Part shown: positions 7,991 to 36,459 of the stretch, piece after piece | Position numbering within the stretch: the first letter of the stretch is position 1 | Layout of the letters: the number at the start of each line of letters is the position of its first letter | Origin: an uncultured delta proteobacterium | Lineage (GTDB): Bacteria; Desulfobacterota; Binatia; Binatales; Binataceae | Assembly (NCBI GenBank): GCA_963850125.1 | Contig: CAWKKB010000013.1 | Span: 112,280 to 176,279 of the forward strand | Direction: 5' to 3' | Length of the DNA stretch: 64,000 nt | Notes under the pieces: generated by a model | What the model was told of the DNA's origin: nothing | Database searches by the model: none | Seen by the model: the letters and a program-made list of their open reading frames with translations, nothing else | Made by a program: the position numbers and the translations under genes

Positions 7991-8019
7991 TCGATTAGTT
8001 ATTAGCGATTAGTCAATAG

Positions 8020-14361: not shown

Positions 14362-14371
14362 ATTTCACCCC

Positions 14372-16407: not shown

Positions 16408-16426
16408 CGCCTGGCTGCGCGATTCC

Positions 16427-17431
16427 TCACGCCACGTAATGCCGCACCATGCGCCACGAGTCTTTCAGATTCTTGCCAAACTCGAGCGCCACCGTCCCCT
16501 CGAATCCCGAATGCAGCTTGCAGTCACGGCAGCGGAAATCCTGCTTGGTGCGATAGTACTCCCAATCCGTCGCCGCATGCATCTCGTCGAGCGTCTTGTA
16601 GTGACCGTTGGTGATCAGGTAGCAGGGCCCCTTCCATCCTTGCGGATTGCGGGTGATCGTCGTCCACGGACTGCACTGCATGTCGCGCTTACCGACCAGG
16701 TAGTCAAGGTAAATTGGCGTGTTGATAATCTTATAGTCGTTCGCCATGTCGCGAACCTTGAAGAACTTCGCCGGCATCTCTTCCTTCTTCAGATATTCTT
16801 CGTCGTTCTGCAGCACCTGGTAGTGATAGCCGGGACTCAGCAGCATCCCGTCGACGCCGAGGCTGGTCAGGTACTTGACCATGTCCTCGAGCTCCTGCCC
16901 CGTGGTCTCGCGGAAGACCGTGGTGTTGGTCTGCACGCGGTAGCCCTTCTCCTTCAGCATCTTGATCATCTTCACGACGATGTCGAAATGCCCCACCCGA
17001 TCGGTCACGCGATCATTGGTCTCGCGCATCCCGTCCAGATGCAGGTTGAAGCTGAGATATGGACTCGGCGGCACCTGCTTGACGAATCGCTCGAGCAGAA
17101 TCGCGTTGGTGCATATCATCACGTGACGCTTCTGATCCTCGATAAGCCCGCGCGTCAGCGCCGCGATATGCTTGTACATCAGCGGCTCGCCCCCGCAGAT
17201 CGACACGATTGGCGCGCCGGCCTCCTCGGCCGAATGCAGCGCCTCGTCGAGCGGCATCATGTCGCGGATGGTGTCCTTGTACTCGACGATTCGCCCACAT
17301 CCGATACACGCGAGGTTGCACGCATGCAGCGGTTCGAGCATCAGCACCAGCGGAAAATATTTCTCGCCCGCCCGCTTCTTCGCGCGCATGTAGCGGCCAA
17401 GATCGATCATCTGTCTCAATGGAATGCGCAT
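16427..17431 (-). CDS. hpnH: Radical SAM adenosyl-hopene transferase HpnH
   Basis: 334 aa. CxxxCxxC cluster motif (ACNLACIGCGRI) near the N-terminus. Size and cluster context match HpnH. Confidence 0.8.
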   Translation of the reverse strand: MRIPLRQMIDLGRYMRAKKRAGEKYFPLVLMLEPLHACNLACIGCGRIVEYKDTIRDMMPLDEALHSAEEAGAPIVSICGGEPLMYKHIAALTRGLIEDQKRHVMICTNAILLERFVKQVPPSPYLSFNLHLDGMRETNDRVTDRVGHFDIVVKMIKMLKEKGYRVQTNTTVFRETTGQELEDMVKYLTSLGVDGMLLSPGYHYQVLQNDEEYLKKEEMPAKFFKVRDMANDYKIINTPIYLDYLVGKRDMQCSPWTTITRNPQGWKGPCYLITNGHYKTLDEMHAATDWEYYRTKQDFRCRDCKLHSGFEGTVALEFGKNLKDSWRMVRHYVA

Positions 17432-17470
17432 AGCTCTGCGTTCTCCTACGAACCAGGTTGAAGAAAAAAG

Positions 17471-18187
17471 TCAGGCGGACGGTGCGCCGCCCTCCGATGA
17501 AGATGTCCCCGACGGACCGAACAACCACTCACCCACCATCGCCACCGCCCCTTCGGGGTCGATCGCATTCGCACCCATAAACAAATATTCGATCAGCAAT
17601 CCATTCAGTGCTGACAGCAGGAAGGCCGCCGCCGATTCCGGGGCCGTTCGCCGCGTGCAGATCCCTTTCCGCTGGGCGCTCGCAATCAGATCGACCAGCA
17701 TCGCGCGATAACCGCTGTAGAGCTTCAGCACCTGCTCGTTGAGGCTTTCGGACAGCTTCTGGTCGTGGAGCATCTGTGCCAGGAAGAACCGCACCGAGCT
17801 CGCGTTGTCGCGCACGAACGACAGGTACGACTCGACCAGCTTTAGAATCTGCTGACGTTCGTCCATCGCGGCCGCTTCTTCCGCGAAATCGATAAAGTAT
17901 GGTTCCAACAAGCGATTGAGCACCGCGACGAACAGCTCTTCCTTGGTCTTGAAATGCCAGAAAATCAGCGCCTTGCTGACGCGTGCCTCGCGCGCCACTT
18001 CCGACATCGAGGTTTCATGGAACCCACGGCTGGCAAAAAGCCGCATTGCTGCCTTCAGAATTTCATCGCGCGAGTCCTGCGACCCGGTGCGCCGCTCAGC
18101 AATGCCTACCCTGATCTGCGATACACCCATATCCCGGCCGTGACGCCCTGTCCCCCTTTTGTCGTCGCCCGTAGCCACGAAATCCAT
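17471..18187 (-). CDS. TetR/AcrR family transcriptional regulator
   Basis: 238 aa. N-terminal HTH ILKAAMRLFASRGFHETSMSEVAREARVSKALIFWHFKTKEELF. Confidence 0.8.
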   Translation of the reverse strand: MDFVATGDDKRGTGRHGRDMGVSQIRVGIAERRTGSQDSRDEILKAAMRLFASRGFHETSMSEVAREARVSKALIFWHFKTKEELFVAVLNRLLEPYFIDFAEEAAAMDERQQILKLVESYLSFVRDNASSVRFFLAQMLHDQKLSESLNEQVLKLYSGYRAMLVDLIASAQRKGICTRRTAPESAAAFLLSALNGLLIEYLFMGANAIDPEGAVAMVGEWLFGPSGTSSSEGGAPSA

Positions 18188-18352
18188 CCAACGCCCGCTA
18201 ATTCAGGCCGCAGTCATCTGCGTGTCTCGAAAATGCGGCTAACCTTTCGGTCAATTGAAACTTTACCGTCACAATCCTGAAAGTCAAGAGCGACAGTCCG
18301 AGCGGTCAGTCGGTCAGCGCGACCCAAAACGAATCGCACCAGCAATGACGGA

Positions 18353-19420
18353 TTAACTATCTGATTTTACGGTGGAAACAGGGGTTTCGATCGCAATGCC
18401 GTTGTTAACAGAAGAATTCAGGGCCGCCTCGATTAGCAGCAGTGCAACACGGGCCTGTGTCAGATTGCGCCTTGCTATCGGAGAATCGGTTCCTTCGGTC
18501 ACCGCTCGCTCGAACTCCTCGGCCACACCCCCGAACCACGCCGAATGATAAGAGTCGTCGGCCATGTCCGCGACCGAAAGGTCCTCGGGCTTGCCAGACC
18601 GTTCCGTGAGGAACACTCGATCCCCTTCGATTTCGAGACTCGCTCGCTCTCCATATATGAGGGCCGAGGTTCTCCGCACCGGGGCGCGCCACGACAAGTG
18701 TGCCCGGCCGATCGCACCATTCGCGAACCTGATTCGCACGTCGGCCAGGTCGTCAACGTCCGAACCTGCCGGGGATTCGAGCAGAGCCGAAACCGAGAAC
18801 GGCGTCTGCTCGTTCAGCAGCCAGGACATCAAGTAGAAAACATGCCACCCATGATCGATCAAAATACCGCCGCCCGATGCGGCTGACGAACGCCACTGGC
18901 CACCGCTACCGCCAGCCCCGGCGGGCTCGCTCCGGAGGCGATCGATCGAAATGAAGCGAATCGCGCCGAGACTGCCAGCCTCGATCGCTTTGCGTGCAGC
19001 CGCGTAGGCAGGCGCGTATTTCCAGTTGTGCACGCACATCAACACTCGCCGCTTTTCCGCTGCCAGCCCCGCAAGCTCGTCGAACTCGCCCAGCGAAAGC
19101 GCGAGCGGCTTCTCGACCAGCACGTGCGCGCCCGCCGCCAATGCCGCCCGCGCGGCCTCGTGATGCAACCCCGGAGGACTGGCGACATCCACAAAATCTG
19201 GAGCCTCGCCATCGAGCATCAATTCGAGGTCGTCGTAAACGCGGACACTCTTGATAAGACGGATCGCCTCGTGCCGCCGCTGCGAGACGGGATCGTGAAT
19301 CGCGCCGACAGTGATATTTTCGCGCGTACGCCACCCGGGGAGGTGTGCGCGGGCGGCAACCTCGCCAAATCCCGAAATTGCACCGCGCAATTTTGCTCGA
19401 CTCGCCATCAGCGCCGACAA
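18353..19420 (-). CDS. Gfo/Idh/MocA family NAD(P)-dependent oxidoreductase
   Basis: 355 aa. N-terminal Rossmann fold and the EKPLA motif (VLVEKPLALS) diagnostic of the family. Confidence 0.75.
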   Translation of the reverse strand: MSALMASRAKLRGAISGFGEVAARAHLPGWRTRENITVGAIHDPVSQRRHEAIRLIKSVRVYDDLELMLDGEAPDFVDVASPPGLHHEAARAALAAGAHVLVEKPLALSLGEFDELAGLAAEKRRVLMCVHNWKYAPAYAAARKAIEAGSLGAIRFISIDRLRSEPAGAGGSGGQWRSSAASGGGILIDHGWHVFYLMSWLLNEQTPFSVSALLESPAGSDVDDLADVRIRFANGAIGRAHLSWRAPVRRTSALIYGERASLEIEGDRVFLTERSGKPEDLSVADMADDSYHSAWFGGVAEEFERAVTEGTDSPIARRNLTQARVALLLIEAALNSSVNNGIAIETPVSTVKSDS

Positions 19421-19603
19421 GTGTCAGCTAAACCGGGTTGCCTCGCAACCCGCACCGCAGTCGCAGCACGGCGGTGCAGTTGAAATGCGGCATGGAGAAC
19501 GCCTGATCTTAGACCGATTCAGGTGCAAATCAGGCTGAATCCGATGGCAACGCTCTTGCTCTCTTGACCAGCGAACGCTCAACCACAGGGAGGCAGGCGA
19601 ATC

Positions 19604-19843
19604 ATGTTCGCATGGATCCTAATCGGACTTATCTCGGGATGGCTGGCAGGAAAAATTCTCAACGGCAACGGCTACGGCGTGATGTGCGACATCGGGCTCG
19701 GACTGCTGGGCGGCGTCGTCGGCGGAATGATCTTCGAGGTCCTGGGCGTGCGCGCACACAACTTCATCGGCGCAATCCTGATGTCGACGGCCGGCGCCAC
19801 CGCGCTGGTGATAGCGACAAGAATAATTCGCGACGAAATCTGA
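19604..19843 (+). CDS. GlsB/YeaQ/YmgE family stress-associated small membrane protein
   Basis: 79 aa. Gly-rich TM helices GLISGWLAGKI...GLGLLGGVVGGMIFEVLG are typical of the family. Confidence 0.75.
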   Translation: MFAWILIGLISGWLAGKILNGNGYGVMCDIGLGLLGGVVGGMIFEVLGVRAHNFIGAILMSTAGATALVIATRIIRDEI

Positions 19844-19859
19844 GCGCGGCGCTCCAACA

Positions 19860-19935
19860 CCTCTCCCTTCGGGAGAGGGCGCGCTCCCGCGCAGGTGAGG
19901 GCGCCAGCATTGTGCTCGATGCCAGCGCCCTCACC
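19860..19935. terminator. Cluster of GC-rich hairpins between convergent genes, likely a bidirectional terminator. The first hairpin is a member of the REP-like repeat family.
   Basis: CCTCTCCC-TTCG-GGGAGAGG (19860-19879), GCGCG-CTCC-CGCGC, then an 11-bp stem GGTGAGGGCGC...GCGCCCTCACC (19894-19935). Located between the yeaQ-like stop (19843) and the LLM stop (19988). Confidence 0.5.
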
Positions 19936-19987
19936 CGACGCTCGCGGACTCGCGTCGACCTCTCCCCGCGGGAAAGGATTGCCATCC

Positions 19988-20839
19988 CTAAACGTACAGC
20001 TCTGCGATCTTCTTCAGCATCCCTTCGGAATTCTCAAACGTTAGATCTCCCAATCCTGCGACGAATCGTCCCGCGCCGGCTTCCGCGAACTCCTTGAGTC
20101 CATCCTGGACCTTCGCGCGGTCGCCGCGGATTCCGCCCATGATTGTGATATCCAGCTCCGCGAAATTCCTGCCGACCGTCGCGCATTCACGCTTGAGCTC
20201 ATCGACCCGCGTCTTCAATTGCGCCGCAGTTAACTGGATCGGGCACCATCCGTCGGCCCACTTCGCAACCCGCTTGAGTGCATTTTTGTCGAGGCTGCCG
20301 ATCAGCACCGGCGGTCCCGATTTCTGCGCTGGCTTCGGCAACGACTTCACCGGGGGAAACTTGACGTACTTGCCCTCGAAAGACGGCTGGTCCTCGGTCC
20401 ACAGTTTGCGCATCGCTGCGACTATCTCGGCCGTCTCGGTCCATCGATGGGGGAAATCGACGCCGAACAAATCGCTTTCCTCGCGCAGCCATCCGGCGCC
20501 AATTCCGAACAGCACGCGGCCGCCCGAGTATGCATCCAGCGTCGCGAACTGTTTGGCGAGCGTGAGCGGTTCATGCTCAGGCACCAGGCAGATGCCGGTG
20601 GCGAGTTTCAGATTCCTGGTGACGGCGGCCGCCATGCTGAGCGCGATCATCTGATCGGCCATCGTAAAGTATGGCGGCGGGATCGGGCCGCCGGAGGGGA
20701 ACTGCTGCTTGGGATTCGCGGGCATCGCGGGATGCTCCGGCACCCAGATGGATTCGAATCCGAGCGACTCAGCGACTCGCGCAAATTCCGCAGGGTGAGC
20801 ATTCTTGCCAGTGAACGGCGTCAGCAATCCAATTTTCAT
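19988..20839 (-). CDS. LLM-class (luciferase-like) flavin/F420-dependent oxidoreductase
   Basis: 283 aa TIM-barrel LLM family. ESIWVPEH...LATGICLVP...LFGIGAGW blocks. Confidence 0.75.
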   Translation of the reverse strand: MKIGLLTPFTGKNAHPAEFARVAESLGFESIWVPEHPAMPANPKQQFPSGGPIPPPYFTMADQMIALSMAAAVTRNLKLATGICLVPEHEPLTLAKQFATLDAYSGGRVLFGIGAGWLREESDLFGVDFPHRWTETAEIVAAMRKLWTEDQPSFEGKYVKFPPVKSLPKPAQKSGPPVLIGSLDKNALKRVAKWADGWCPIQLTAAQLKTRVDELKRECATVGRNFAELDITIMGGIRGDRAKVQDGLKEFAEAGAGRFVAGLGDLTFENSEGMLKKIAELYV

Positions 20840-20867
20840 ATTTTCCTCACGAGAGCGGCGTTCCCGC

Positions 20868-22289
20868 TCAGTTGCTTCTCACCACGGCGGGCGGCTTCCA
20901 CGAGCCGGTCAGCGCCGCGTCTTTCGGCCAGTACAGCCGCATCACTACGTAAATCGGGCCGTCCGGAGCCGGCAGCCAGTTCGTTTCGTTGTCCGCTCCG
21001 GGCGAGTCTTTCTGCAGGTAAATGGTCATCGAGCCGTCAGCGTTCTTCTTCAGGTCCGGCAGCATCGCCGAGTTAATCAGGTACCGATGGAGTGGATTCT
21101 TGACCAGCAACTGTGTCTTGCCGTCGTACATGGTCACCGACCAGAACGCGTTCACTGGAGGCAGCGCTCCAGCGTGGAACGTCAGGGTGTAACGGTTCGT
21201 GCCGCAATTCGGTTTCTTGCCGCGGCTGTCGGTGGCGAGCAACGGATATAACGCCTCGGCCGCGTCATTGCCGTAGATTCCCGCCATCGCGGCGGCAGCG
21301 CGGCGCGTCCAGTTGCCAGCGAACGAATCGCGATTACCGAAGCCGCTGGTCGACACGCGCCAGCCATTCTCAATCCGGCCGAAAGTTCCGAGTTCCTCCT
21401 GTATCTGGTACATCCCGTTCTTGATGCCCATTTCGATTGCGGACGTTCCTCCCGGCGTATTGGGGGAGAAAGGCTTGCCCGCTTCAATCCCGATCCTGGC
21501 GAATCGCTCGCGCATTGGAATCTCCACTGCTGCGGGGCCAGTCGCCGGACAGAATTGCAGAATGAAGCTCAGGTAGGTGAAAGGACCTGCGTCCGCTTTT
21601 CTTTTGTCGATCTTTGGCCACTTGATCGCGGCAGCCGGCGGCGGTGCGGCTTTATGCTGGAACTTCGAAAGCGGCTCACCGCGATACCCCGCTTGGATCT
21701 TCTTCACGTTTTCGAGATCGCTGGCGTTGAATAGCTGCGTGCGGATTAGTCCGATCGAGAATTCCGTCTCGCTGTGGAACACCTTTGAGATGCCTTCGGG
21801 CTTGTCGCCCGTCCAGCCAGGCCCGGAGATCATGTAGCAGCCGGCGCCGTTACCCGTCGTGCGGCTGCCGATGTAGCCGTAGTTGAAGGTGTACCAATCG
21901 ACTAACTGAATGGAAAAATACCGCGGCTTCTCAATCTCCGGATTGCACAAAACATACGGCTCGGTCCGCAGATCCATCGCGACAAACGAGTACGGCGTGT
22001 CGCTGTTGGGTGTGACGACCGCAGTGTCCGCCGGCGTATAGACGCGGGCCGTGTTGTAGAGCGTGTTAATCGGACCTTTGTATTCGGGCGACGATTTGTC
22101 GATCCAGTACTGGTAGAAGACGGCGTAGTTCATAACGAGAGGCAGGCCGTAAACGAACGCCTCGCCGGCGATAAGGGTTGGCCAGTCGTTGCCGGCCTGT
22201 GCATAAGCTGGATGATCCGATTCCAGCGTCGCCATACTTATGGCAACGACGAGCGCCATCACTGCCGTTTTGAACATCTTGTTCGGCAA
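20868..22289 (-). CDS. Secreted DUF1254/DUF1214-like protein
   Basis: 473 aa. N-terminal signal peptide MFKTAVMALVVAISMATLES. Architecture resembles two-domain DUF1254+DUF1214 proteins. Assignment from memory of family features only. Confidence 0.4.
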   Translation of the reverse strand: MPNKMFKTAVMALVVAISMATLESDHPAYAQAGNDWPTLIAGEAFVYGLPLVMNYAVFYQYWIDKSSPEYKGPINTLYNTARVYTPADTAVVTPNSDTPYSFVAMDLRTEPYVLCNPEIEKPRYFSIQLVDWYTFNYGYIGSRTTGNGAGCYMISGPGWTGDKPEGISKVFHSETEFSIGLIRTQLFNASDLENVKKIQAGYRGEPLSKFQHKAAPPPAAAIKWPKIDKRKADAGPFTYLSFILQFCPATGPAAVEIPMRERFARIGIEAGKPFSPNTPGGTSAIEMGIKNGMYQIQEELGTFGRIENGWRVSTSGFGNRDSFAGNWTRRAAAAMAGIYGNDAAEALYPLLATDSRGKKPNCGTNRYTLTFHAGALPPVNAFWSVTMYDGKTQLLVKNPLHRYLINSAMLPDLKKNADGSMTIYLQKDSPGADNETNWLPAPDGPIYVVMRLYWPKDAALTGSWKPPAVVRSN

Positions 22290-22370: not shown

Positions 22371-22844
22371 CTACCAGCCGAAGAAATCTTTCGCTGCGAC
22401 GAACTTAGCGATCCCGGCTGCTTCACCTGCGAGTCTGTCGACTTCCTGATCGCCGACCATCGTCGACGACGTCAGGTCGACGCCGTACAAATCCGCCAGT
22501 TCCGTGATCATGCCACCCTTGGGCTTGCGGCATTCGCAGTTGTCGTCGTCTGTGTGCGGACAGATTTGCCATCCGGTCAGAATATCGCCGAGCTGATGGT
22601 CAAGCTGCGCGAGAGCTGCTTCGACTTTTTCCACTTTGAGACGGCCGCGCGTGATTCCCGCCTGGTTGGTGACGATAAACATCAGATGGTTGTGCAGCGG
22701 GCGTAGCTTGTCGGCGACGTTGGGCAGCAGTTCGATTACGATGTTACCGTTAGCGTCGAGCGGAATTTCTCGCGACTCGTTCAGCTTGACCAGGGTGCCG
22801 CCTAGATCGAAGAACAGCGCCGCGTTGCCATTCGGATTGGCCAT
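22371..22844 (-). CDS. HAD-IIIA phosphatase, GmhB/HisB-N-like (D,D-heptose-1,7-bisphosphate phosphatase family)
   Basis: About 157 aa from MANPNGNAALFFDLGGTLV. FFDLGG nucleophile motif, IVTNQAGITRG, Zn-binding ICPHTDDDNCECRKPKGGMI and MVGDQEVD match the GmhB signature blocks. The ORF-track start (22931) overlaps the upstream aminotransferase; the internal Met at 22844 is more plausible. Confidence 0.7.
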   Translation of the reverse strand: MANPNGNAALFFDLGGTLVKLNESREIPLDANGNIVIELLPNVADKLRPLHNHLMFIVTNQAGITRGRLKVEKVEAALAQLDHQLGDILTGWQICPHTDDDNCECRKPKGGMITELADLYGVDLTSSTMVGDQEVDRLAGEAAGIAKFVAAKDFFGW

Positions 22845-22860
22845 CGAAAAAAGATCTCGC

Positions 22861-24231
22861 TTATGCGTGATGCCAGTCAACGTGGTCACGAACGTGCGCG
22901 AACACTTCGTCCAGGATTTCGACGCCGGCATCCGCCTGCGCTTCAGTGATTACAAGCGACGGGTTGATACGAATCTTGGGAAAGTAGGCCATCGTGATCA
23001 GACCGCGCTTGAGGCATTCGGCGAAGATCAGCTCGGTGACTTTCTTGCCGAGCAGTTCCTTGGTTTCGAGATCGCGCACGAGCTCGACCCCAATAAGTAG
23101 TCCCTTGCCGCGTACGTCGCCGATGAATTCGTACTTTTCCTTGAGCTGCACCAGGCGTGAGAGCATCATCGCGCCCACTTTGCGCGAGTTCTCGACCAGA
23201 TGCTCTCGCTGAATCGCGCCGATCGTTTCCGAGACCGCAACTGCCGCGAGCGGATTTCCGCCGTAACTCGACGACGACGCGCTCGGCTTACCGAACGGCT
23301 CCGCCTTGCCCAGCTCGTCGCTCAGCAGCACGCCCGAGACCGGGAATCCCGAGCCCATGCCTTTCCCGACGGTGACGATATCCGGACGGACGCCGCTATG
23401 CTCGACGCCCCACCATTTCCCGGTACGTCCGAAGCCGGTGATCATTTCGTCAGCTATCAGCAGCGCGCCGAAATCCTTGGCGACGGATTTGACCGCGGGC
23501 ATCCAGTCGTCGGGCGGAATCACATTGCCAGCCGTGCCCTGCATCGGCTCGGCGACGATCGCAGCGAGCGCCCCGCTGGAACTCATCTTGATTTGCTGAC
23601 GCGCGAAATCGACACAGTAAAGACCGCAGTCGGGATATTTCAACTTGAACGGACATCGGTAGCAGTCAGCATACGGCACCGTGTATTGCCCGCCCTGCAA
23701 AGGTCCGTAGCCTTGCTTCGATTCGTCGCCGATAAGTCCGAGGACGCCGCCGGTCTTGCCGTGGAACCCGCCCCAAAAACTCACCGCTTCATGATGGCCG
23801 GTTGCGGAGCGCGCCAGCCTGAGGGCGGCTTCGACCGCCTCCGCGCCGCCGCTGTACAGATGCGCGCGATTCAATCCGGCGGGCGCGACTTCGGCCAGCG
23901 CCTTGAACGCAGCCGCACGCTCTTTGGTCGCGAAGGTGCCGACTGTCAACCGCGACGCCTGGTTCGACAGCGCTTGCGCCATCCCCGGATGCGCATGACC
24001 CAAACTCGCGACCGCCACGCCCGCAAAAAAATCCACGTAGGTGTTGCCGTCGGCGTCGGTGAGAGTCGCGCCTTCGCCGTGGTCGAAAGCGAGGCCGGCG
24101 AGCAGCGAGATTCGCTGGCGGCCGGGCGCGATATATTTTTGTTCGAGGTCGAAGATCTCTTTCGACTTGGGTCCTGGAACTGGAGTCTTGATCGAGGGAA
24201 GTTTTCCGTTGGTGGTCGTCGTGGTCTTCAA
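22861..24231 (-). CDS. Class III PLP-dependent aminotransferase (acetylornithine/ornithine/GABA-aminotransferase family; HpnO-like)
   Basis: 456 aa. Fold-type I aminotransferase class III blocks: GNTYVDFFAGVAVASLGH, LLIADEMITGFGRTGKWW, TVGKGMGSGFP (Lys in TVGK). Confidence 0.85.
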   Translation of the reverse strand: MKTTTTTNGKLPSIKTPVPGPKSKEIFDLEQKYIAPGRQRISLLAGLAFDHGEGATLTDADGNTYVDFFAGVAVASLGHAHPGMAQALSNQASRLTVGTFATKERAAAFKALAEVAPAGLNRAHLYSGGAEAVEAALRLARSATGHHEAVSFWGGFHGKTGGVLGLIGDESKQGYGPLQGGQYTVPYADCYRCPFKLKYPDCGLYCVDFARQQIKMSSSGALAAIVAEPMQGTAGNVIPPDDWMPAVKSVAKDFGALLIADEMITGFGRTGKWWGVEHSGVRPDIVTVGKGMGSGFPVSGVLLSDELGKAEPFGKPSASSSSYGGNPLAAVAVSETIGAIQREHLVENSRKVGAMMLSRLVQLKEKYEFIGDVRGKGLLIGVELVRDLETKELLGKKVTELIFAECLKRGLITMAYFPKIRINPSLVITEAQADAGVEILDEVFAHVRDHVDWHHA

Positions 24232-24274: not shown

Positions 24275-25096
24275 CTAACGCGGCCGGCCTAGCAGACTTA
24301 TCGCACGGCGCGCGATCGCGCGAGCGGCCGGGCCGCGCACCCGGCTATAGCTGGGCCAGTCGTTAAAATCGATAATCGCAAAACGGTCTCCACCCAGGAC
24401 TGCGTCTCCGCCCCACGCCTCGAGGCCGAGCGCGGCCGCCGCGGCAGAAGCTGCGTCAGACAGCGCGCGCACGGCGGCCTCGGGAACTTCCTCGTCCTCC
24501 GGATGCACGCTGAAATGCGAATTGCCGCTGACGCCGTAAAATTTCACGACGCGGCCGACGACTTCCTGCTGAACGTACGCGAAGCGAACTCCGCGCTGCG
24601 CGAAATCGGCGAGAATCGACTCGACCTGCGCGCGATCGGCCGCGCGCTGCACGTCTTCGGGCGCGAGCGCATGCAAATCTCCGCGCTTCACGAACACGCC
24701 CGCCGACAAGTCCAGCCCGGCAAGCTTGCGCGCATCGAGCGGCTCGTCCGCGGGAATCAGCGCGCCGACCGGAGTCGGTACTCCGGCGCGCTCGAGGCCG
24801 GGCGCGAGTAAATCGCGATAGCAGTTGCGAATCGAGAGCGCGGAGTTGATCGCAATCGCACCCGCCTGCTCGACGGCGGCCAGCCGCTTGAGTGCGCGCG
24901 GGCCTTGGCACATCGGCAGCACGAGATCGGCGCGCGGGGTTGGTCCCGCCGCAAAGTTGACCGCGTCCACGGTCTGGATATCGAGGCCCTCGCGCTTCAG
25001 CTCCGCCATCGTGGCATCGAGAATCGCGGCGTCGGCTTCGACCTTGCCCGGTGAGAACTCGGGTTCCCGATAAATTCCCAAAGCTTTGTGGCTCAT
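24275..25096 (-). CDS. ATP-grasp-like ligase (RimK-like, divergent)
   Basis: 273 aa. Block AINSALSIRNCYRDLLAPGLERAGVPTP resembles the RimK pre-ATP-grasp/ATP-grasp junction (INS..AIR.C.DKL.T.QLL...GIPVP). C-terminal IIDFNDWPSYS resembles the E/D-x-N..P Mg-binding loop. Low-identity call. Confidence 0.45.
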   Translation of the reverse strand: MSHKALGIYREPEFSPGKVEADAAILDATMAELKREGLDIQTVDAVNFAAGPTPRADLVLPMCQGPRALKRLAAVEQAGAIAINSALSIRNCYRDLLAPGLERAGVPTPVGALIPADEPLDARKLAGLDLSAGVFVKRGDLHALAPEDVQRAADRAQVESILADFAQRGVRFAYVQQEVVGRVVKFYGVSGNSHFSVHPEDEEVPEAAVRALSDAASAAAAALGLEAWGGDAVLGGDRFAIIDFNDWPSYSRVRGPAARAIARRAISLLGRPR

Positions 25097-25818
25097 GGCA
25101 TCTTCCGTATTGCGAGGCGCGCGGCGTCGAGGTCCGACGCTTCATCCACGTCGATCGATCCTTCAATCTCGATCGCATCCAGCCGCATCCCGCGTTCTAT
25201 GAGCATCGCAAGGAAGCGGCGGAGCGCGTCGAGTCCCGCGCGGCGCGCGTCGGCGGCGTACTCGAAAATTCGGGTCGACAGGAAATAAAGTCCTGCCGTC
25301 ATCATAGAAGTGTGACGGTTGCCCAGCCCGATGATCAACCCATTCCCTGTTACATCTGCGAAAAGTGGCTTGAGCTCGCCGCGCCATCGCGACACGGCCA
25401 GCACACCGCTCAGGTTTTTGTCGCCACAATCCTCGATTTTCCGCCGCGACTCATTAACAAACCGCACCAATTCTTTCAGCGGAATTACGGCGTCTACCGT
25501 CGATGCGACAAACCATCCCGGCTCGAGTACATCGGCCAATGCGAGCATCGTTTCCATCGAGTTGGCAGTATCGCGAACGACGAAACGCGCCGACGGCGGC
25601 ATCTCAAGCGCCATCTCGCCCGCAATCCGCGCCGTCTCCGAATTGATCACCGCCACCACCGACGATGCTCCCGCGTCGAGCAGTGCGCGCGCCTGTCGCG
25701 AGAGCATCGCCTCGCCGCCCAAAATGACCAGCGGCTTTGGAGTGTCGTCGCGCGTCGAGATGCGCAGGCGCTCGCCACGGCCGGCGGCAATAATCGCTCC
25801 TTGCAATTTGGTCACCAT
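25093..25818 (-). CDS. Sugar-phosphate/alcohol-phosphate nucleotidyltransferase (NTP_transferase fold; HddC/LicC/MurU-like size)
   Basis: 241 aa. G-x-G-x-R-L signature AIIAAGRGERLR followed by KPLVILGGEAML. Overlaps the neighbouring genes by 4-7 nt, consistent with operon coupling. Confidence 0.7.
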   Translation of the reverse strand: MVTKLQGAIIAAGRGERLRISTRDDTPKPLVILGGEAMLSRQARALLDAGASSVVAVINSETARIAGEMALEMPPSARFVVRDTANSMETMLALADVLEPGWFVASTVDAVIPLKELVRFVNESRRKIEDCGDKNLSGVLAVSRWRGELKPLFADVTGNGLIIGLGNRHTSMMTAGLYFLSTRIFEYAADARRAGLDALRRFLAMLIERGMRLDAIEIEGSIDVDEASDLDAARLAIRKMP

Positions 25819-26540
25819 TGAATCTGCGCAACTTCGTCGATGCTTCGTATCGTCACGTCAGTGGCGGCTGAATCTTTACCGGATCGCGGTTCGGTGCACA
25901 GCCATACTGTCCGCATGCCTAGTTTTCGCGCGGGTGCGCAATCCTTGCCCAGCGAATCCCCAATCATCGCGACCGAACTTGCCGCGCATTGTATTTTCTT
26001 CAAGGCGGCCTCGAAGATGCGTACGTCAGGTTTGAAAATTCCGACGCGCGATGAATCAGCGACCGAGGTGAAGAATCGATCGAGCTTTGCTTCCTCGAGA
26101 ACGCGGTCTAGGTTCCCATAGAAATTAGACACAACGCCCATCTTGAAGCGGTTTTTGAGCGGGCCGACGACGTCGCGACTGTGCGCAAGACCTGCTGACG
26201 TTTCGCGAACGAAGAAATTCGTCACAACCTCGACGAATCGATGGCGTCCCGCGGCGCTGGAATCATCCAAGGTCGCACGAAGCGCGTCGGGACCACTCTT
26301 GCGCAGGTATTCGAACTGATGCCCTACCAGGAACCGCACCAGGTCCATCAATCCGAAGCGCGCGACTATCCTGGTCGCGCCGTAGCCGATTCGCGTCGCG
26401 TGATCGAAGGCGGGGTCGAGCTCGTTCCGGGTGATTTCAACGCCTGCCGCGCTGTAGCTCGCCAGGAATCGGTCGAGCCAGTGCGCAGGCCCGTCGAGGG
26501 TGCCTCCGAAATCGAACAGGAGAGCGGTAATCGGGGCCAT
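25812..26540 (-). CDS. HAD-superfamily hydrolase (phosphatase/phosphomutase-like)
   Basis: 242 aa. Motif I LLFDFGGTL (DxG), plus internal GDSLGKD-type motif III (MIGDSLGKD). Confidence 0.65.
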   Translation of the reverse strand: MAPITALLFDFGGTLDGPAHWLDRFLASYSAAGVEITRNELDPAFDHATRIGYGATRIVARFGLMDLVRFLVGHQFEYLRKSGPDALRATLDDSSAAGRHRFVEVVTNFFVRETSAGLAHSRDVVGPLKNRFKMGVVSNFYGNLDRVLEEAKLDRFFTSVADSSRVGIFKPDVRIFEAALKKIQCAASSVAMIGDSLGKDCAPARKLGMRTVWLCTEPRSGKDSAATDVTIRSIDEVAQIQW

Positions 26541-26583
26541 AAAACGGCCATTGTACCAGCCACAGCGATCATCCTCCAGTTTT

Positions 26584-26599
26584 GTTTCATCGATGAAAC
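26584..26599. promoter_or_regulatory. Perfect 16-bp palindrome GTTTCATCGATGAAAC in an AT-rich divergent promoter; candidate operator
   Basis: Read directly: ...agttttGTTTCATCGATGAAACgaacc... Located in the 215-bp low-GC spacer between the divergent HAD-NTase-ATPgrasp-AT-GmhB operon and the NTase::CDP-OH-P-transferase/B12-rSAM operon. Confidence 0.4.
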
Positions 26600-26755
26600 G
26601 AACCGTTTTTAGAGTAAGAAAAGACTCGCTTCAGAAAAAAGATGAACTCATAATTAATGTGTGAGCTTAGTAGAAGGGCTACTTCCGCCGGCGTTACCGC
26701 TGTGTTACCGTGGCGCGATTGAAGAGGGGGAAAACCGGGTTTTAGTGGAACGTCA

Positions 26756-27952
26756 TTGATCGAAACCGCTCTAATCGCTGCACCTGACCGCGCGGATAAT
26801 GCGGTCTTCGGCCGTCCGCTGTTAGAGCGGCTGATGATTAATTGCGAGCGCGCCGGGATTAAGCGGTTCGTCATCGCGGCGCCGCGCGAGCGTTATTCGG
26901 ATGTCGCGCGCGCGATGGGCCGGTTCAAAAACAGCGACTCGGTCGCGATGGTCGAGTCGTTCGGCGAGATTCTGAATCAGCGGACTGCACAGGAATTGGG
27001 CATCGACCCACTATTGCCGTGCGTGTCCTTTTCGGGAAACCTGGTATTTGCCAAGTCGCAACTGGCGCGAATCCTTGACGCGCACGCCTCCAATCCGAAA
27101 TCGGTACATCGGGCGATCAGCACTGACCATGACCGTGGCGGTGAAATCGCGACTGGTGCGATCGGCGAGATTCTCAAGCGTGGCGGGATTTCGACCCCTG
27201 TTCCTGCATCTGCTGCGAGCCTCCTGCCCTTTGCCCTGAACGGTCGTCCCGAAGATCGGGAGGAAGCCGAATTGCGGCTGGCGAAATCGATTCGCGAGGA
27301 GTCGGCGCACAAGGACGCGCCGATGGCGCGATGGGTCGACCGGCGCATTTCGTGGCGCATCAGCTATTGGCTCGCGTCGCATACGCGCGCAACGCCGAAC
27401 ATGATCACGGTCGCGAACACGATGTTCGGGCTGGCGACTGCGTGGATGTTTTCGGTGCCGAACTACTGGATGCGGCTGTTCGCGGCGATTTTCTTTTTGA
27501 TTTCGATCACGATCGATGGCGTCGACGGCGAGTTGGCGCGGCTCAAGATGGTTGAGAGCGATTTCGGCGGCGCGCTGGACGTAATCACCGACAATGTCGT
27601 CCACGCCGCCGTGTTCATCGGCTTGCTGGTCGGATGTTACAGGGTCGAGCATAGCCGCGCTTACCTTTACCTGATTCCAATCCTGCTGGGCGGATTTGCG
27701 ATGTGCGCTTATGCGACGTGGCGCGCATTTAAGATAAAAGGCGCGCGCGCGGCGGAATGGTTGGACAAGGTCGATCGATGGAGCGGGCGCGATTTCGCCT
27801 ATTTGCTCGTGGTATTGGCTCTAATCAATCGGCTAGAGTACTTCGCTTGGGGAACAGCGTTCGGTACTTACCTGTTCGCCCTGGGGCTGATATGGATTGC
27901 CGGCCGGACCGAATCGTCAATGAAGCCTGAAGAGTCTGCAGGAATAAGTTGA
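26756..27952 (+). CDS. Bifunctional-architecture protein: N-terminal nucleotidyltransferase-like (GT-A/NTP_transferase-like, signature degenerate) domain fused to C-terminal CDP-alcohol phosphotransferase membrane domain (IPCT/DIPPS-like organisation)
   Basis: 398 aa. Perfect CDP-alcohol phosphatidyltransferase motif D-G-x2-A-R-x8-G-x3-D-x3-D in DGELARLKMVESDFGGALDVITD, followed by 3-4 TM helices. N-terminal about 200 aa has ALIAAPDRADNAVFGRPLL instead of the canonical G-x-G-T-R-L. Confidence 0.7.
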   Translation: MIETALIAAPDRADNAVFGRPLLERLMINCERAGIKRFVIAAPRERYSDVARAMGRFKNSDSVAMVESFGEILNQRTAQELGIDPLLPCVSFSGNLVFAKSQLARILDAHASNPKSVHRAISTDHDRGGEIATGAIGEILKRGGISTPVPASAASLLPFALNGRPEDREEAELRLAKSIREESAHKDAPMARWVDRRISWRISYWLASHTRATPNMITVANTMFGLATAWMFSVPNYWMRLFAAIFFLISITIDGVDGELARLKMVESDFGGALDVITDNVVHAAVFIGLLVGCYRVEHSRAYLYLIPILLGGFAMCAYATWRAFKIKGARAAEWLDKVDRWSGRDFAYLLVVLALINRLEYFAWGTAFGTYLFALGLIWIAGRTESSMKPEESAGIS

Positions 27953-27971: not shown

Positions 27972-29303
27972 ATGAACGGCAAGAAGCCACGAATTCTCCT
28001 GGTGCAACCCACGACCGTCCATCTGGACGGCACACCGCACAAAACGCGATGGCGGCTGATCATGGGCCTCATGATTCCGCTGATGGCCGGACTGACGCCC
28101 GACGACTACGACGTGACGCTGTGCGACGAACGCCTCGAGGACATCAACTTCGATGGCGGATGGGACCTGGTCGGCATGACGACAACGATCGGCGCGTCGC
28201 TGCGCGCGTACCAGCTCGGCGACGAGTTCCGCAAACGCGGAATCCCGGTGGTGTTCGGCGGCTTCCATGCAACCTTGCAGACCGAAGAAGCGCTCCATCA
28301 TTGCGACGCGGTCGTGAAGGGAGAGGCCGACCTGGTGTGGCCCGAGCTGCTGCAGGACTGGCGTGACGGCAAGCTCAAGACGATTTACAAAGCCGACAAA
28401 GTGCACGATCTGAAAAACCTGCCGCGACCGCGGCATGAACTGCTCAAGCTGAATCGCTACCTGTTCAAAGCGGTGCCCGTGCAGGCGAGCCGCGGATGCC
28501 CGTATCGATGTTCGTTCTGCGAGATTCCGGTGTTCTACGACGGCGCATATCGCACGCGGCCCATCGAGGACATCGTCGAAGAGATCAAGCAGGTCATGAA
28601 GGTGACCGGCTTCAGGCGCTTTCAGTTCATCGACGATCAGATTACCGGCAAGCACAAGTTCGCGCGCGAGCTGTTCAAGGCGCTCGAGCCGCTCAATATC
28701 CGTTTCTCCTGCCTGTGGACCATCAATTCGAATCACGACGACGAGTTGCTGGACCTCGCGGCGAAGGCGGGAATTTTCCACGTCAACATCGGGGTGGAAT
28801 CGATCAGCCAGGACAGCCTGCTGTCGATGAACAAGATTCAGAATCACGCCGGGCAGTACAAGAAGCTGCTCAAGAAGCTCGAAAAATACGGAATCTATTA
28901 TTCGCTCAACTTCCTGTTCGGGCTGGAAGAGGATCATCCGGGAATTTTCGACGACACGCTGAAGTTCCTGCACGAGGTCAAGGCGCCCGAGGCGTTCTTC
29001 AACACCGTTACGCCGCGCGTCGGCACTCCGATGCGCACGCAGCTCGAGAACGAAGGCCGCGTGATAATCCCCGACGCCGATTTGTACACCAACAACTTCC
29101 GCTGCATGTTCGTGCCGAAAAACATGTCGCCGCAGGAAGTCGAAGAAGGCGTGTGGCGATGCACCAAGGAGTTCTACTCGCTCAAGTCGATGTTCAAGCG
29201 TCTGCTGATGCCGCCGGGAAAGTTCACCTGGCAGGGCCTGACCGAGAACATGCTCTTCTACTGGGGCGCGAAGCGGCAGATCGATCCGGTTGATTATTAT
29301 TAG
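27972..29303 (+). CDS. B12-binding-domain radical SAM enzyme (class B rSAM; HpnJ/HpnP/HpnR-like or other)
   Basis: 443 aa. N-terminal cobalamin-binding Rossmann-like region (RILLVQP...VVFGGFHATL). CxxxCxxC cluster ASRGCPYRCSFCEI. C-terminal extension resembling the DUF4070-type tail of class B rSAMs. Confidence 0.8.
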   Translation: MNGKKPRILLVQPTTVHLDGTPHKTRWRLIMGLMIPLMAGLTPDDYDVTLCDERLEDINFDGGWDLVGMTTTIGASLRAYQLGDEFRKRGIPVVFGGFHATLQTEEALHHCDAVVKGEADLVWPELLQDWRDGKLKTIYKADKVHDLKNLPRPRHELLKLNRYLFKAVPVQASRGCPYRCSFCEIPVFYDGAYRTRPIEDIVEEIKQVMKVTGFRRFQFIDDQITGKHKFARELFKALEPLNIRFSCLWTINSNHDDELLDLAAKAGIFHVNIGVESISQDSLLSMNKIQNHAGQYKKLLKKLEKYGIYYSLNFLFGLEEDHPGIFDDTLKFLHEVKAPEAFFNTVTPRVGTPMRTQLENEGRVIIPDADLYTNNFRCMFVPKNMSPQEVEEGVWRCTKEFYSLKSMFKRLLMPPGKFTWQGLTENMLFYWGAKRQIDPVDYY

Positions 29304-29317
29304 GCCGCTATCTGTCT

Positions 29318-29355
29318 CCTCTCCCTGCGAGGGAGAGGATGAAGGTGAGGGTCCT
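29318..29355 (+). repeat. REP-like palindromic repeat, copy A (CCTCTCCC-TGCGA-GGGAGAGG-ATGAAGGTGAGGGTCCT)
   Basis: Read directly; lies 15 bp after the B12-rSAM stop. It seeds the spurious ORF 29339..29806 (MKVRVL...). Confidence 0.7.
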
Positions 29356-29432: not shown

Positions 29433-29747
29433 TTGATCTTAAAGACGCTCGCGGTGCTAGTGCTCGCCGCGCTGCTCGAGGTCGGCGGCGATGCGCTCGT
29501 CCGGATAGGACTGCACACCTACGGCTACTCGCTGGCAGCCGGCGCATTTGCGCTGTTCGCGTACGGAATCCTGGTCAATCAAAGTGGCGTCGATTTCAAC
29601 CGCCTGATGGGAATCTACATCGCGATCTTCTTCGTGGTGTCGCAGGTGATCTCGTTTCTGTTCTTCAAGCAAATCCCGGACGACAGAATAATCTTCGGCG
29701 GCGGCTTCATCGTAGCCGGCGGTCTAGTGATTCTGCTGATGACGTGA
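29433..29747 (+). CDS. Small 4-TM membrane protein, YnfA/UPF0060-like (DMT-superfamily-like)
   Basis: 104 aa with four hydrophobic helices. Length and Gly-rich last helix (FGGGFIVAGGLVILL) resemble E. coli YnfA. Confidence 0.45.
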   Translation: MILKTLAVLVLAALLEVGGDALVRIGLHTYGYSLAAGAFALFAYGILVNQSGVDFNRLMGIYIAIFFVVSQVISFLFFKQIPDDRIIFGGGFIVAGGLVILLMT

Positions 29748-36382: not shown

Positions 36383-36459
36383 CGGGGTGTGGCGCAGACT
36401 GGTAGCGCACTCGCTTGGGGTGCGAGTGGTCGCCGGTTCAAATCCGGCCACCCCGACCA
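36383..36459 (+). tRNA. tRNA-Pro (anticodon GGG)
   Basis: 77-nt cloverleaf read by hand: acceptor CGGGGTG/CACCCCG (C1:G72, typical of bacterial tRNA-Pro), D-arm GCGC-AGACTGGTA-GCGC, anticodon arm CTCGC-TTGGGGT-GCGAG (anticodon GGG), variable loop TGGTC, T-arm GCCGG-TTCAAAT-CCGGC, discriminator A, and encoded CCA. Confidence 0.85.

Follow-up and report, generated by a model that had tools for sequence, protein, structure and literature searches.

Hopanoids are the main bacterial molecular fossils, and their interpretation needs enzymes to be assigned to modifications. To our knowledge, HpnP and HpnR, whose genes often lie apart from the core operon, are the sole precedent for B12-type radical S-adenosylmethionine (SAM) chemistry on the hopanoid skeleton, and HpnJ has been proposed to contract the ring of bacteriohopanetetrol (BHT)-glucosamine, yielding BHT cyclitol ether. 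These three are the only class-B-type radical SAM enzymes currently tied to hopanoids (review PMC13459092). For several hopanoid modifications no enzyme is known, among them unsaturation that arises under anoxia, additional hydroxylation, isomers of the side chain and head groups of an unusual kind (PMC12583986). In the literature we found no described hopanoid-linked fourth B12-type radical SAM enzyme and no combination of hopanoids with cytidine diphosphate (CDP)-alcohol chemistry. Here, we analysed a stretch of 64,000 nucleotides (the window) from an uncultured member of the Binataceae (contig CAWKKB010000013.1, positions 112,280 to 176,279), in which the gene at 27972-29303 codes for a class-B-type radical SAM enzyme.

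A preliminary description of this gene had considered HpnJ, HpnP/HpnR or none of these, in which case it would be the radical step of a novel cassette; only the last of these three options survived, and no NCBIfam model attained its curated cut-off on the protein. Although the enzyme class is known, the family is new, strongly conserved and as yet without a name, and its recurrent genomic association is new as well. We lean, with modest confidence, towards a radical SAM enzyme with an accessory role in hopanoid modification. Its architecture, its non-membership in named families and its recurrent gene neighbourhoods are observed, and the proposed function is drawn from the neighbourhoods. Beyond what had been described, we found conservation across phyla, recurrent flanks of hpnN/hpnM/hpnS, hpnH or hpnI, and recurrence of the cassette in the hopanoid clusters of another phylum. 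A conserved unnamed family with such contexts, accompanied in Binataceae by a phosphotransferase cassette next to the shc operon, is therefore a testable candidate for an orphan hopanoid step or for a new class of hopanoids.

The radical SAM gene and its product

27972-29303, + strand: class-B-type radical SAM enzyme of an unnamed orthologue family, 443 amino acids (aa); basis: open reading frame (ORF), motif, Pfam/NCBIfam, orthologues and structural model

The ORF starts with ATG, ends with TAG and is preceded by a GGAGGA Shine-Dalgarno sequence 5 nt 5' of the start codon. Its start lies 19 nt past the stop of the preceding CDP-alcohol phosphotransferase gene, a gap that makes co-transcription of both genes likely. 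Both the ORF and its CPYRCSFC motif had been predicted correctly: the motif corresponds to residues 176-183 and is the sole CxxxCxxC in the protein. Of the B12-binding, radical SAM and DUF4070-like architecture initially described, the radical SAM part stood (Pfam PF04055, 66.6 bits, above the gathering score), and the class-B layout was visible in the structural model, whereas the other two of the three elements were formally sub-threshold, with 29.5 bits (E 7e-7) for B12-binding PF02310, slightly under its gathering score of 32.1, and 19.8 bits (E 9e-4) for DUF4070, under its gathering score of 22. PF02310 is listed in the precomputed annotation of most orthologues.

An AlphaFold2 model obtained from 46 orthologues had a pLDDT of 90.6 and a pTM of 0.89. 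Strands and helices alternate in residues 7-140, which we read as a Rossmann-like N-terminal domain, and residues 167-345 form a strand/helix core read as the radical SAM barrel, while the C-terminal domain is helical. The model thus predicts the three-domain layout of class B, as expected. No membrane segment was predicted in the protein. The three cysteines C176, C180 and C183 were invariant in the 46 orthologues and in 101 distant relatives. In the 46 orthologues, the GGFH motif (residues 96-99) was also invariant, with G96 and G97 kept in the 101 distant relatives as well, and so were the SCLWT motif, which contains C247, and C378; HVNIG.E was nearly so. The mean column identity in the alignment of 46 family sequences was 67 %.

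Downstream of the gene, a perfect 9-bp hairpin (CCTCTCCCT GCG AGGGAGAGG, window 29318-29338) begins 15 nt past the stop codon and is not followed by a T-run. It may act like a terminator or stabilise the RNA ahead of the next gene, which codes for a small membrane protein. An Rfam scan of the window gave a single match, a tRNA at 36383-36456 (+ strand, 65 bits), and no cobalamin or SAM riboswitch.

Relation to named radical SAM families

The protein was scored against the NCBIfam models, and the most relevant results were as follows.

BchE (TIGR02026): 102 bits, cut-off 481; the top-scoring NCBIfam model
ApyD: 92 bits, cut-off 750
PhpK: 88 bits, cut-off 600
HpnJ (TIGR03471): 79.3 bits, cut-off 577.6; alignment limited to residues 133-403
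Ladderane-type lipid B12 radical SAM (TIGR04072): 72.7 bits, cut-off 360
AprD4 family diol dehydratases (NF033070): 52 bits, cut-off 500
HpnR (TIGR04367): 49.1 bits, cut-off 650

Membership in the HpnJ, HpnR, BchE, PhpK, AprD4 and ladderane families was ruled out by the curated hidden Markov model (HMM) cut-offs. The preliminary description had named an unrelated clade, such as BchE, as the outcome that would speak against its candidates; we found no hopanoid-family HMM above threshold, but no membership in BchE or in any other named clade either. By these scores, the enzyme is neither HpnJ nor HpnR, and nothing suggests HpnP: an HpnP-like family was absent among the best 25 of 28 NCBIfam matches, in a comparison that included no HpnP-specific model. 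In published practice, true HpnP proteins have ~55 % similarity or more, and other B12-type radical SAM proteins <34 % (PMC12583986). A genuine HpnJ, encoded at a locus described below (L175), reached 430 bits with its C-terminal 298 residues alone; it is 26.5 % identical to the window enzyme and 25-29 % identical to every member of the family.

Relatives were sought exhaustively among 1.84 billion cluster representatives, which gave 38,268 matches at E <= 1e-3, with 1,707 of them at E <= 1e-30. A single cluster took in every orthologue with at least 50 % identity, and the next representatives were at ~40 % identity or below. None of the 100 nearest 50 %-cluster representatives (32-40 % identity) could be placed in a named family, the best models being BchE (1e-39) and then HpnJ (9e-38). 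The window enzyme therefore falls in a large part of class-B radical SAM space for which there are no family names. Several relatives at 32-40 % identity are far longer than 443 aa, and single members match ClsB-type cardiolipin synthase or glycosyltransferase models; these long or fused proteins hint that this sector often acts on lipids or glycans. Such genes are readily mislabelled 'HpnJ-like', 'BchE-like' or 'YgiQ', as happened in the source annotations, which calls for caution.

No annotated HpnP, HpnR or HpnJ was found on plasmids, where the best homologues are called 'radical SAM protein' (32-38 % identity) and genes annotated BchE code for proteins with 25-28 % identity to the window enzyme. 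No bacteriochlorophyll (bch) genes were found at any locus examined. Acetic acid bacteria make hopanoids whose side chains are methylated in an unusual way, and plasmids of Komagataeibacter and Acetobacter (H71-H75) carry a B12-binding radical SAM gene, once annotated 'methyltransferase', whose product has 27-28 % identity to the window enzyme and lies outside its family; this gene may be of interest for orphan hopanoid methylations.

Among solved structures, the best sequence matches were MgmA (9ccb, E 1e-10) and AprD4 (6fd2, E 5e-10), both limited to the radical SAM core. The best full-length fold match in PDB (Foldseek) was again AprD4 6fd2, with E 1e-22, a TM-score of 0.78 and 20 % identity, followed by the cobalamin enzymes TsrM, CysS, MgmA, TokK and OxsB with TM-scores of 0.65-0.71.

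Orthologues and gene neighbourhoods in Binataceae

Identical or near-identical genes are present on metagenome-assembled genome (MAG) contigs of Candidatus Binatus and other Binataceae (100 % identity in L073), and the DNA of the window comes from a Candidatus Binatus bacterium. Within Binatia, the identity of orthologues is 68-99 %. Orthologues with 53-59 % identity were found in Geobacter sp. SVR, Geotalea uraniireducens, Geomonas, Nitrospirota (including Leptospirillum ferrodiazotrophum), Elusimicrobia, Desulfobacca acetoxidans and many metagenomic contigs. A neighbour-joining tree separated four groups: the Binatia clade, a 433-aa clade, a 437-aa clade and a Nitrospirota clade of 445-451 aa.

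One genome per species was scanned, which gave 80 Binataceae loci, and the neighbours from the window were compared by tblastn. The CDP-alcohol phosphotransferase gene was found directly upstream and on the same strand at 74 of the 80 loci; three of the six misses are truncated contigs, which leaves 74 of 77 informative species. The radical SAM protein itself was kept at 87-99 % identity in nearly all loci, compared with 44-93 % for the phosphotransferase, which falls to 44-60 % in the more divergent species. The partner gene and the divergently transcribed genes next to it are listed with their occurrence at the 80 loci.

26756-27952, + strand: CDP-alcohol phosphotransferase with IPCT/DIPPS-like architecture, 398 aa (Pfam CDP-OH_P_transf, 56 bits)
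26541-26755, no strand: 215-bp intergenic spacer that separates the cassette (- strand) from the phosphotransferase and radical SAM genes (+ strand; from the gene coordinates)
25812-26540, - strand: phosphatase of the HAD-IA family, whose gene opens the divergent cassette (NCBIfam HAD-SF-IA-v1 above cut-off); 66/80
25093-25818, - strand: nucleotidyltransferase NTP_transf_3 (Pfam, 36 bits); 66/80
24275-25096, - strand: 273-aa protein, probably of ATP-grasp fold (kinase or ligase; faint Ins134_P3_kin ATP-grasp match); 63/80
22861-24231, - strand: class-III aminotransferase (Pfam Aminotran_3, 313 bits; no NCBIfam equivalog above cut-off); 57/80
22371-22931, - strand: HAD-IIIA phosphatase, histidinol-phosphatase/GmhB-like (TIGR01656 and TIGR01662 above cut-off); 57/80
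29433-29747, + strand: small membrane protein of 104 aa with three hydrophobic segments, weakly UPF0060/YnfA-like (Pfam UPF0060, 20.9 bits, under the gathering score); 21/80 only

In two species (L075 and L078), the block from the aminotransferase to the phosphotransferase is missing, and the radical SAM gene directly adjoins the genes for the HAD-IIIA phosphatase, which stays beside it, TetR, HpnH, farnesyl diphosphate (FPP) synthase, alcohol dehydrogenase and squalene-hopene cyclase (SHC). In L086 the hopanoid operon is on the opposite side of the radical SAM gene and adjacency is kept. In Binataceae, the gene therefore accompanies both the phosphotransferase and the hopanoid operon, and the hopanoid link survives loss of the cassette. 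The small membrane protein is an add-on of the closest species, outside the conserved core.

In the window, the cassette abuts an hpnH-shc-hpnCDE-hpnA operon on the - strand, given here with scores against curated cut-offs.

16427-17431, - strand: HpnH, adenosyl-hopene transferase, first gene of the operon (TIGR03470, 372 vs 225)
15436-16407, - strand: FPP synthase (above cut-off)
14372-15439, - strand: zinc-dependent alcohol dehydrogenase (Zn-ADH; no equivalog)
12403-14361, - strand: SHC (706 vs 431)
11223-12392, - strand: Dxr (above cut-off)
10292-11218, - strand: HpnC (314 vs 250)
9388-10329, - strand: HpnD (322 vs 279)
8020-9387, - strand: HpnE (404 vs 283)
6986-7990, - strand: HpnA (456 vs 368)
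4446-5246: HpnG-like phosphorylase (108 vs 187, sub-threshold)

A hopanoid locus within 10 kb had been proposed; the operon is real, but hpnH, its gene nearest to the radical SAM gene, ends at 17431, which is 10.5 kb away and slightly farther than stated. HpnI, J, K, N, P and R were not found in the scanned parts of the window. The hpnK-like deacetylase mentioned in the preliminary description could not be recovered among the scanned ORFs. Zn-ADH, encoded between shc and the FPP synthase gene, co-travels in L075, L078 and L086 (59-68 % identity). It is a candidate enzyme for a step not yet assigned, in which ribosylhopane is reduced to bacteriohopanetetrol. Beside hpnA, within the operon, a membrane protein gene (6078-6983, - strand) is weakly similar to the carotenoid hydratase CruF (47 bits, cut-off 155), and its product could hydrate hopene or another isoprenoid double bond.

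Hopanoid-type neighbours outside Binataceae

Hopanoid-type neighbours were found at 5-6 of the 17 loci of the 433-aa clade (extended panel), and the positive loci lie on different branches of the tree. In L010, genes for HpnN (887/752, in bits over curated cut-off, as in the following), HpnM (184/160) and an MlaA-like protein (HpnS-type) are followed by the orthologue. In a Nitrospirota MAG (L174), the orthologue lies between MlaEFD-MlaC, an MlaA-like gene and HpnM (191/160) plus HpnN (935/752). HpnH (372/225) is encoded 78 nt downstream of the orthologue and on the same strand in L095. Geobacter sp. SVR (L004) was the only case with HpnI near an orthologue: HpnI (381/310) is encoded upstream, 7 kb away, and then come an Mla-type ABC system and an HpnM-like gene. 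TolC-like and HpnM-like genes, both sub-threshold, were present upstream of the orthologue in L105. In L096, a 406-aa orthologue of the phosphotransferase is encoded directly upstream of the radical SAM gene, whose product has 55 % identity to the window enzyme, and a convergent second radical SAM gene and an HpnN-like fragment follow; this phosphotransferase is 31 % identical to the window copy and has the same architecture and motif. MlaA-like lipoproteins encoded beside hpnM/hpnN have been named HpnS and proposed as hopanoid-trafficking factors in a study that makes no mention of the radical SAM family (PMC12324291).

Among the named hosts, Geobacter produces hopanoids, chiefly BHT cyclitol ether, and Leptospirillum has hpnFGAHROP and several scattered B12-type radical SAM paralogues labelled 'hpnJ1-3' (PMC7231039). 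Both were counted for the hopanoid link, since they are hopanoid producers.

Pairing with the phosphotransferase was considered as a trait of the whole family and ruled out: it is missing in Geobacter, Nitrospirota, Elusimicrobia and the other Binatia, and outside Binataceae only L096 has it. De novo clustering of ORFs also gave a cluster of HpnH-like proteins, which are HpnH only in L095; the members from L096 and L176 are MoaA/PqqE/PTO1314-like radical SAM proteins with 38 and 37 bits on the HpnH model, and those from L098 and L100 are 26-27 % identical to them. The small radical SAM protein of L096 (3134-4105, - strand) and L176 (11238-12140, - strand) has 300-324 aa, is 64 % identical between the two loci and is encoded convergently, right after the DIPPS-like phosphotransferase.

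At four loci of the 433-aa clade (L011, L097, L098 and L100), a divergent gene for an ArnT/PMT_2-like membrane glycosyltransferase is located ~2.3 kb upstream (164 bits on the lipid-A 4-amino-4-deoxy-L-arabinose transferase model, under the cut-off). A Nitrospirota contig (L006) contains two paralogues of the family, at 4637-5974 and 8001-9344, ~2 kb apart and with a gene for an MFS transporter between them. Related contigs have one copy and the MFS gene beside genes of sulfate-reduction type (AprAB-looking FAD/Fer4 proteins and ATP sulfurylase).

The phosphotransferase and its cassette

The best NCBIfam matches of the window phosphotransferase are DIPPS, archaetidylinositol-phosphate synthase and phosphatidylinositol-phosphate (PIP) synthase, all under the cut-off. 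Its DGx2ARx8Gx3Dx3D motif is intact and located at residue 257, and its N-terminal ~200 residues form a degenerate nucleotidyltransferase-like domain in which the GxGxR loop is missing. No sigma-70-like consensus was found in the intergenic region 26541-26755. On the other strand, the nucleotidyltransferase is a candidate cytidylyltransferase that would produce the CDP-alcohol donor, the aminotransferase possibly has an HpnO-like role, and the 273-aa protein had no significant Pfam or NCBIfam family match for the window copy. The gene call for the HAD-IIIA phosphatase is 157 aa, and the true start probably gives ~157 aa. From sequence, the logic of the cassette would be that of a phosphodiester-linked, aminated polyol or cyclitol product. 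The genes between the cassette and hpnH are as follows.

20868-22289, - strand: DUF1254/DUF1214 protein, between the LLM oxidoreductase and the HAD-IIIA phosphatase
19988-20839, - strand: F420-dependent LLM-class oxidoreductase (TIGR03619, 244 bits vs 167)
18353-19420, - strand: GFO/IDH/MocA oxidoreductase, inositol-2-dehydrogenase-like (NCBIfam IolG, 78 bits, under cut-off)
17471-18187, - strand: TetR-family regulator, between cassette and hpnH (co-occurs with hpnH in Binataceae)

The DUF1254/DUF1214 gene was present at none of the 80 Binataceae loci and was found in one near-identical contig (L001); the gene seems to have entered the cassette recently. The LLM oxidoreductase is kept beside the cassette at 31 of the 80 loci, and this conserved F420-dependent enzyme implies use of F420 in the lineage.

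A search with the L096-type phosphotransferase led to a family in which every named match is from Syntrophobacteraceae. In L175, from a Syntrophobacterales-type organism with a 5.6-Mb genome, the phosphotransferase gene is followed by a string of genes on the opposite strand that code, in this order, for an HpnN-like RND transporter (514 bits), a second CDP-OH transferase, GFO, the aminotransferase, the ATP-grasp-like protein, the nucleotidyltransferase, the HAD phosphatase and the genuine HpnJ. The cassette spans 14145-20251 in this locus, and the identities to the window proteins are 36 % (GFO), 57 % (aminotransferase), 40 % (ATP-grasp-like, with weak matches to RimK/LysX ATP-grasp models), 33 % (nucleotidyltransferase) and 36 % (HAD-IA). 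The cassette-linked B12-type radical SAM protein of L175 had been a candidate orthologue of the window enzyme, which was ruled out as it is the genuine HpnJ. In L176, where the cassette spans 18298-21194, the phosphotransferase occurs with HpnI (327/310), a second HpnI-like protein, HpnM-, HpnN- and HpnL-like genes, an outer-membrane factor, the aminotransferase and, within the cassette, a GFO orthologue with 36 % identity to that of the window. The cassette is a conserved module of hopanoid head-group/export superclusters in a second phylum. Since it occurs in L175 and L176 without the radical SAM gene within 10 kb, the two are separable.

The part of the window from 36784 to 63772 is rich in genes for trehalose and alpha-glucan metabolism, including a GT4 glycosyltransferase, a glycogen-debranching-type enzyme and a sugar ABC transporter, besides the following two.

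45379-47394: GlgE
61124-63772: TreY (943 bits)

Hopanoid producers are reported to be enriched in osmoprotectant pathways (PMC12324291), and the richness of this third of the window in such genes fits that link.

Proposed function and alternatives

If the enzyme modifies hopanoids, its [4Fe-4S] cluster would cleave SAM reductively to the 5'-deoxyadenosyl radical, as follows from the radical SAM family, and this radical would attack an unactivated C-H bond in an extended hopanoid and remove its hydrogen, more likely in the polyol side chain or polar head than in ring A. The substrate radical could then be methylated from methyl-cobalamin, as with HpnP and HpnR, or undergo an AprD4-like rearrangement or dehydration. 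Methylases make up the majority of characterised class-B enzymes and also of the three hopanoid ones, and therefore cobalamin-dependent C-methylation is slightly favoured on priors. On the other hand, the AprD4-like fold and the two extra invariant cysteines (C247 and C378) keep a non-methylating rearrangement, dehydration or desaturation in play, and the cysteines would fit a role as hydrogen donor if the reaction were an AprD4-like rearrangement. The archaeal B12-type radical SAM desaturase Ted is a precedent for a non-methylating outcome (bioRxiv 10.1101/2025.10.20.683597). In either case, the modified bacteriohopanepolyol would become cargo of HpnN/HpnM/HpnS. Since the family persists without the cassette and accompanies general hopanoid exporters, its substrate is suggested to be a common hopanoid intermediate and not a product specific to the cassette.

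Several observations weigh against a hopanoid-modifying role. All functional support is guilt by association through gene neighbourhood, and the synteny in Binataceae may partly reflect shared ancestry. Hopanoid-type neighbours were found at none of the 32 loci (392 kb) of the 437-aa clade, including Desulfobacca acetoxidans, at none of the four Nitrospirota loci with 445-451 aa and at none of the six loci from other Binatia. Even in the 433-aa clade, the majority of loci have no such neighbour, and the contexts in Geotalea uraniireducens and in an Elusimicrobia MAG were uninformative. No gene of the window type was found within 10 kb in L175 and L176, and many genomes carry the gene without the cassette. 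As to cobalamin, the Pfam B12-binding match of the window protein is sub-threshold and its closest fold, AprD4, is B12-independent. We know of no methylated hopanoids reported from Geobacter, which weakens a ring-methylase form of the proposal.

Other explanations have to be set against these data. The enzyme could serve only as the radical step of the CDP-alcohol cassette, C-methylating, deoxygenating or rearranging the polar moiety of a phosphodiester-linked (amino)cyclitol or polyol, either a compatible solute like di-myo-inositol phosphate (DIP) or a phospholipid head group, with the hopanoid genes as neighbours through a shared envelope or osmotic-stress response. The kinship of the partner with DIPPS, archaetidylinositol-phosphate and PIP synthases and its preserved catalytic motif argue for this, as does the presence of a nucleotidyltransferase, a CDP-alcohol transferase and phosphatases, in the manner of DIP and phosphatidylinositol (PI) synthesis, together with an inositol-dehydrogenase-like GFO and an aminotransferase. 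The closest solved fold belongs to an enzyme that works on an aminocyclitol glycoside, trehalose/glycogen genes lie downstream in the window, and the enrichment of osmoprotectant pathways in hopanoid producers (PMC12324291) would be in line as well. However, the family is widespread without the cassette, yet beside hpnN/hpnM/hpnS, hpnH or hpnI; in L075 and L078, where there is no cassette, the gene is still at the hopanoid operon, the cassette of L175 and L176 has no window-type gene nearby, and in Binataceae the radical SAM protein (87-99 % identity) is far more conserved than its partner (44-93 %). Restriction of the enzyme to the cassette thus seems rather unlikely to us. Still more speculative, and a decidedly improbable proposal at this stage, is that the enzyme, the DIPPS-like phosphotransferase and the divergent cassette jointly build an undescribed class of bacteriohopanepolyol with a phosphodiester-linked, aminated cyclitol or polyol head, which the radical SAM enzyme would C-methylate, deoxygenate or rearrange and HpnN/HpnM/HpnS would export, made by soil Binatia and anaerobic Syntrophobacterales-type bacteria. 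If true, this would bring the radical SAM families of hopanoid biosynthesis to four, introduce CDP-alcohol chemistry to the pathway for the first time and add a new class of biomarkers.

The family might instead have a conserved function unrelated to hopanoids, for example acting on a different lipid or on a cofactor or modifying RNA or protein, and the hopanoid neighbourhoods would then be lineage-specific coincidence. Identity of 53-59 % across phyla would suit a common, conserved substrate, and at 42 of the 59 loci outside the Binataceae core the gene is solitary or in an unrelated context; moreover, the 437-aa clade has a conserved context of its own without a lipid theme (MarC-like, COG1900-like, PP-loop ATPase and methyltransferase genes, from inspection of translated ORFs without HMM scores), which we judged lineage-specific and uninformative. 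Against coincidence, ~10 hopanoid-family genes were counted in ~214 kb around the 433-aa clade versus none in 392 kb around the 437-aa clade, independent cases of adjacency are spread over several branches of the tree (Binataceae, Nitrospirota, Geobacter and Syntrophobacterales-like contigs), and other recurrent neighbours (Mla, TolC-like, ArnT-like) are also envelope-lipid genes, so that we find an unrelated function improbable. As for a displaced or divergent HpnJ, HpnP or HpnR, the shared overall architecture, the hopanoid operon at 10.5 kb and the label 'hpnJ1-3' on scattered Leptospirillum paralogues (PMC7231039) could be invoked. Nevertheless, the HpnJ and HpnR candidacies of the preliminary description, once scored (79 vs 578 and 49 vs 650 bits), were essentially refuted; a genuine HpnJ (430 bits for a 298-aa fragment) is just 25-29 % identical to any family member, neither HpnI nor HpnK turned up in the scanned parts of the window, and published practice sets true HpnP (~55 % similarity or more) apart from other B12-type radical SAM proteins (<34 %; PMC12583986), the evidence against HpnP being indirect. 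Leptospirillum, reported to have hpnP and hpnR, also has a member of the family, consistent with a separate function. We therefore regard these identities as highly improbable. Finally, a mid-chain fatty-acid methylase (10-methyl-16:0, as in Geobacter and Desulfobacter) was considered and discarded, as we found no literature support for it and no fatty-acid genes nearby.

For the accessory hopanoid-modifying enzyme that we favour, the family context hints at an undescribed modification of biomarker lipids. Binatia are abundant, uncultured soil bacteria, and therefore their lipid products could matter for soil biomarker indices.

Comparison with known systems

With HpnJ, the enzyme shares the Rossmann-like N-terminal domain, the CX3CX2C barrel, the DUF4070-like tail, the location in hopanoid gene clusters and perhaps a polar head group as target. 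It differs from it in score (79 vs 578 bits) and identity (25-29 %) and in that an hpnI or hpnK partner did not turn up among the scanned ORFs of the window; furthermore, in L175 it is genuine HpnJ that flanks the same cassette, with no window-type protein encoded within 10 kb. BchE provides the top-scoring NCBIfam model for the enzyme and its 100 nearest relatives, but the score is 102 vs 481 bits and bacteriochlorophyll genes are absent from the contexts examined.

AprD4 is the closest solved full-length structure. It is the radical SAM 1,2-diol dehydratase of apramycin biosynthesis, its Rossmann-like domain is not known to bind cobalamin, and its substrate, paromamine, is an aminocyclitol glycoside that resembles the head groups of composite hopanoids. 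However, the identity is 20 %, AprD4 comes from an actinomycete secondary-metabolite cluster, and no AprD3-like reductase partner was identified at the window locus. MgmA (9ccb), TsrM (6wte), CysS (9n1b) and TokK (7kdx) have the same domain order (TM-scores of 0.65-0.71), but they are 14-19 % identical, act on peptides or small molecules and have extra domains that the window enzyme lacks.

Like HpnP and HpnR, the enzyme is a class-B-type radical SAM protein of hopanoid producers. In comparison with HpnR (49 vs 650 bits) it is shorter, with 443 aa against a profile of 490 positions, and its family repeatedly has a CDP-alcohol phosphotransferase gene or hpnN/hpnM/hpnS as partners, pairings of which we know no description for HpnP or HpnR. 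The partner phosphotransferase, in turn, has the two-domain layout and the DGx2ARx8Gx3Dx3D motif of IPCT/DIPPS and of archaetidylinositol-phosphate and PIP synthases, and separate phosphatase genes lie close to it, as in the DIP and PI pathways. It departs from IPCT/DIPPS in its score (80 bits vs a cut-off of 580) and in its N-terminal domain without GxGxR, and it sits in hopanoid clusters.

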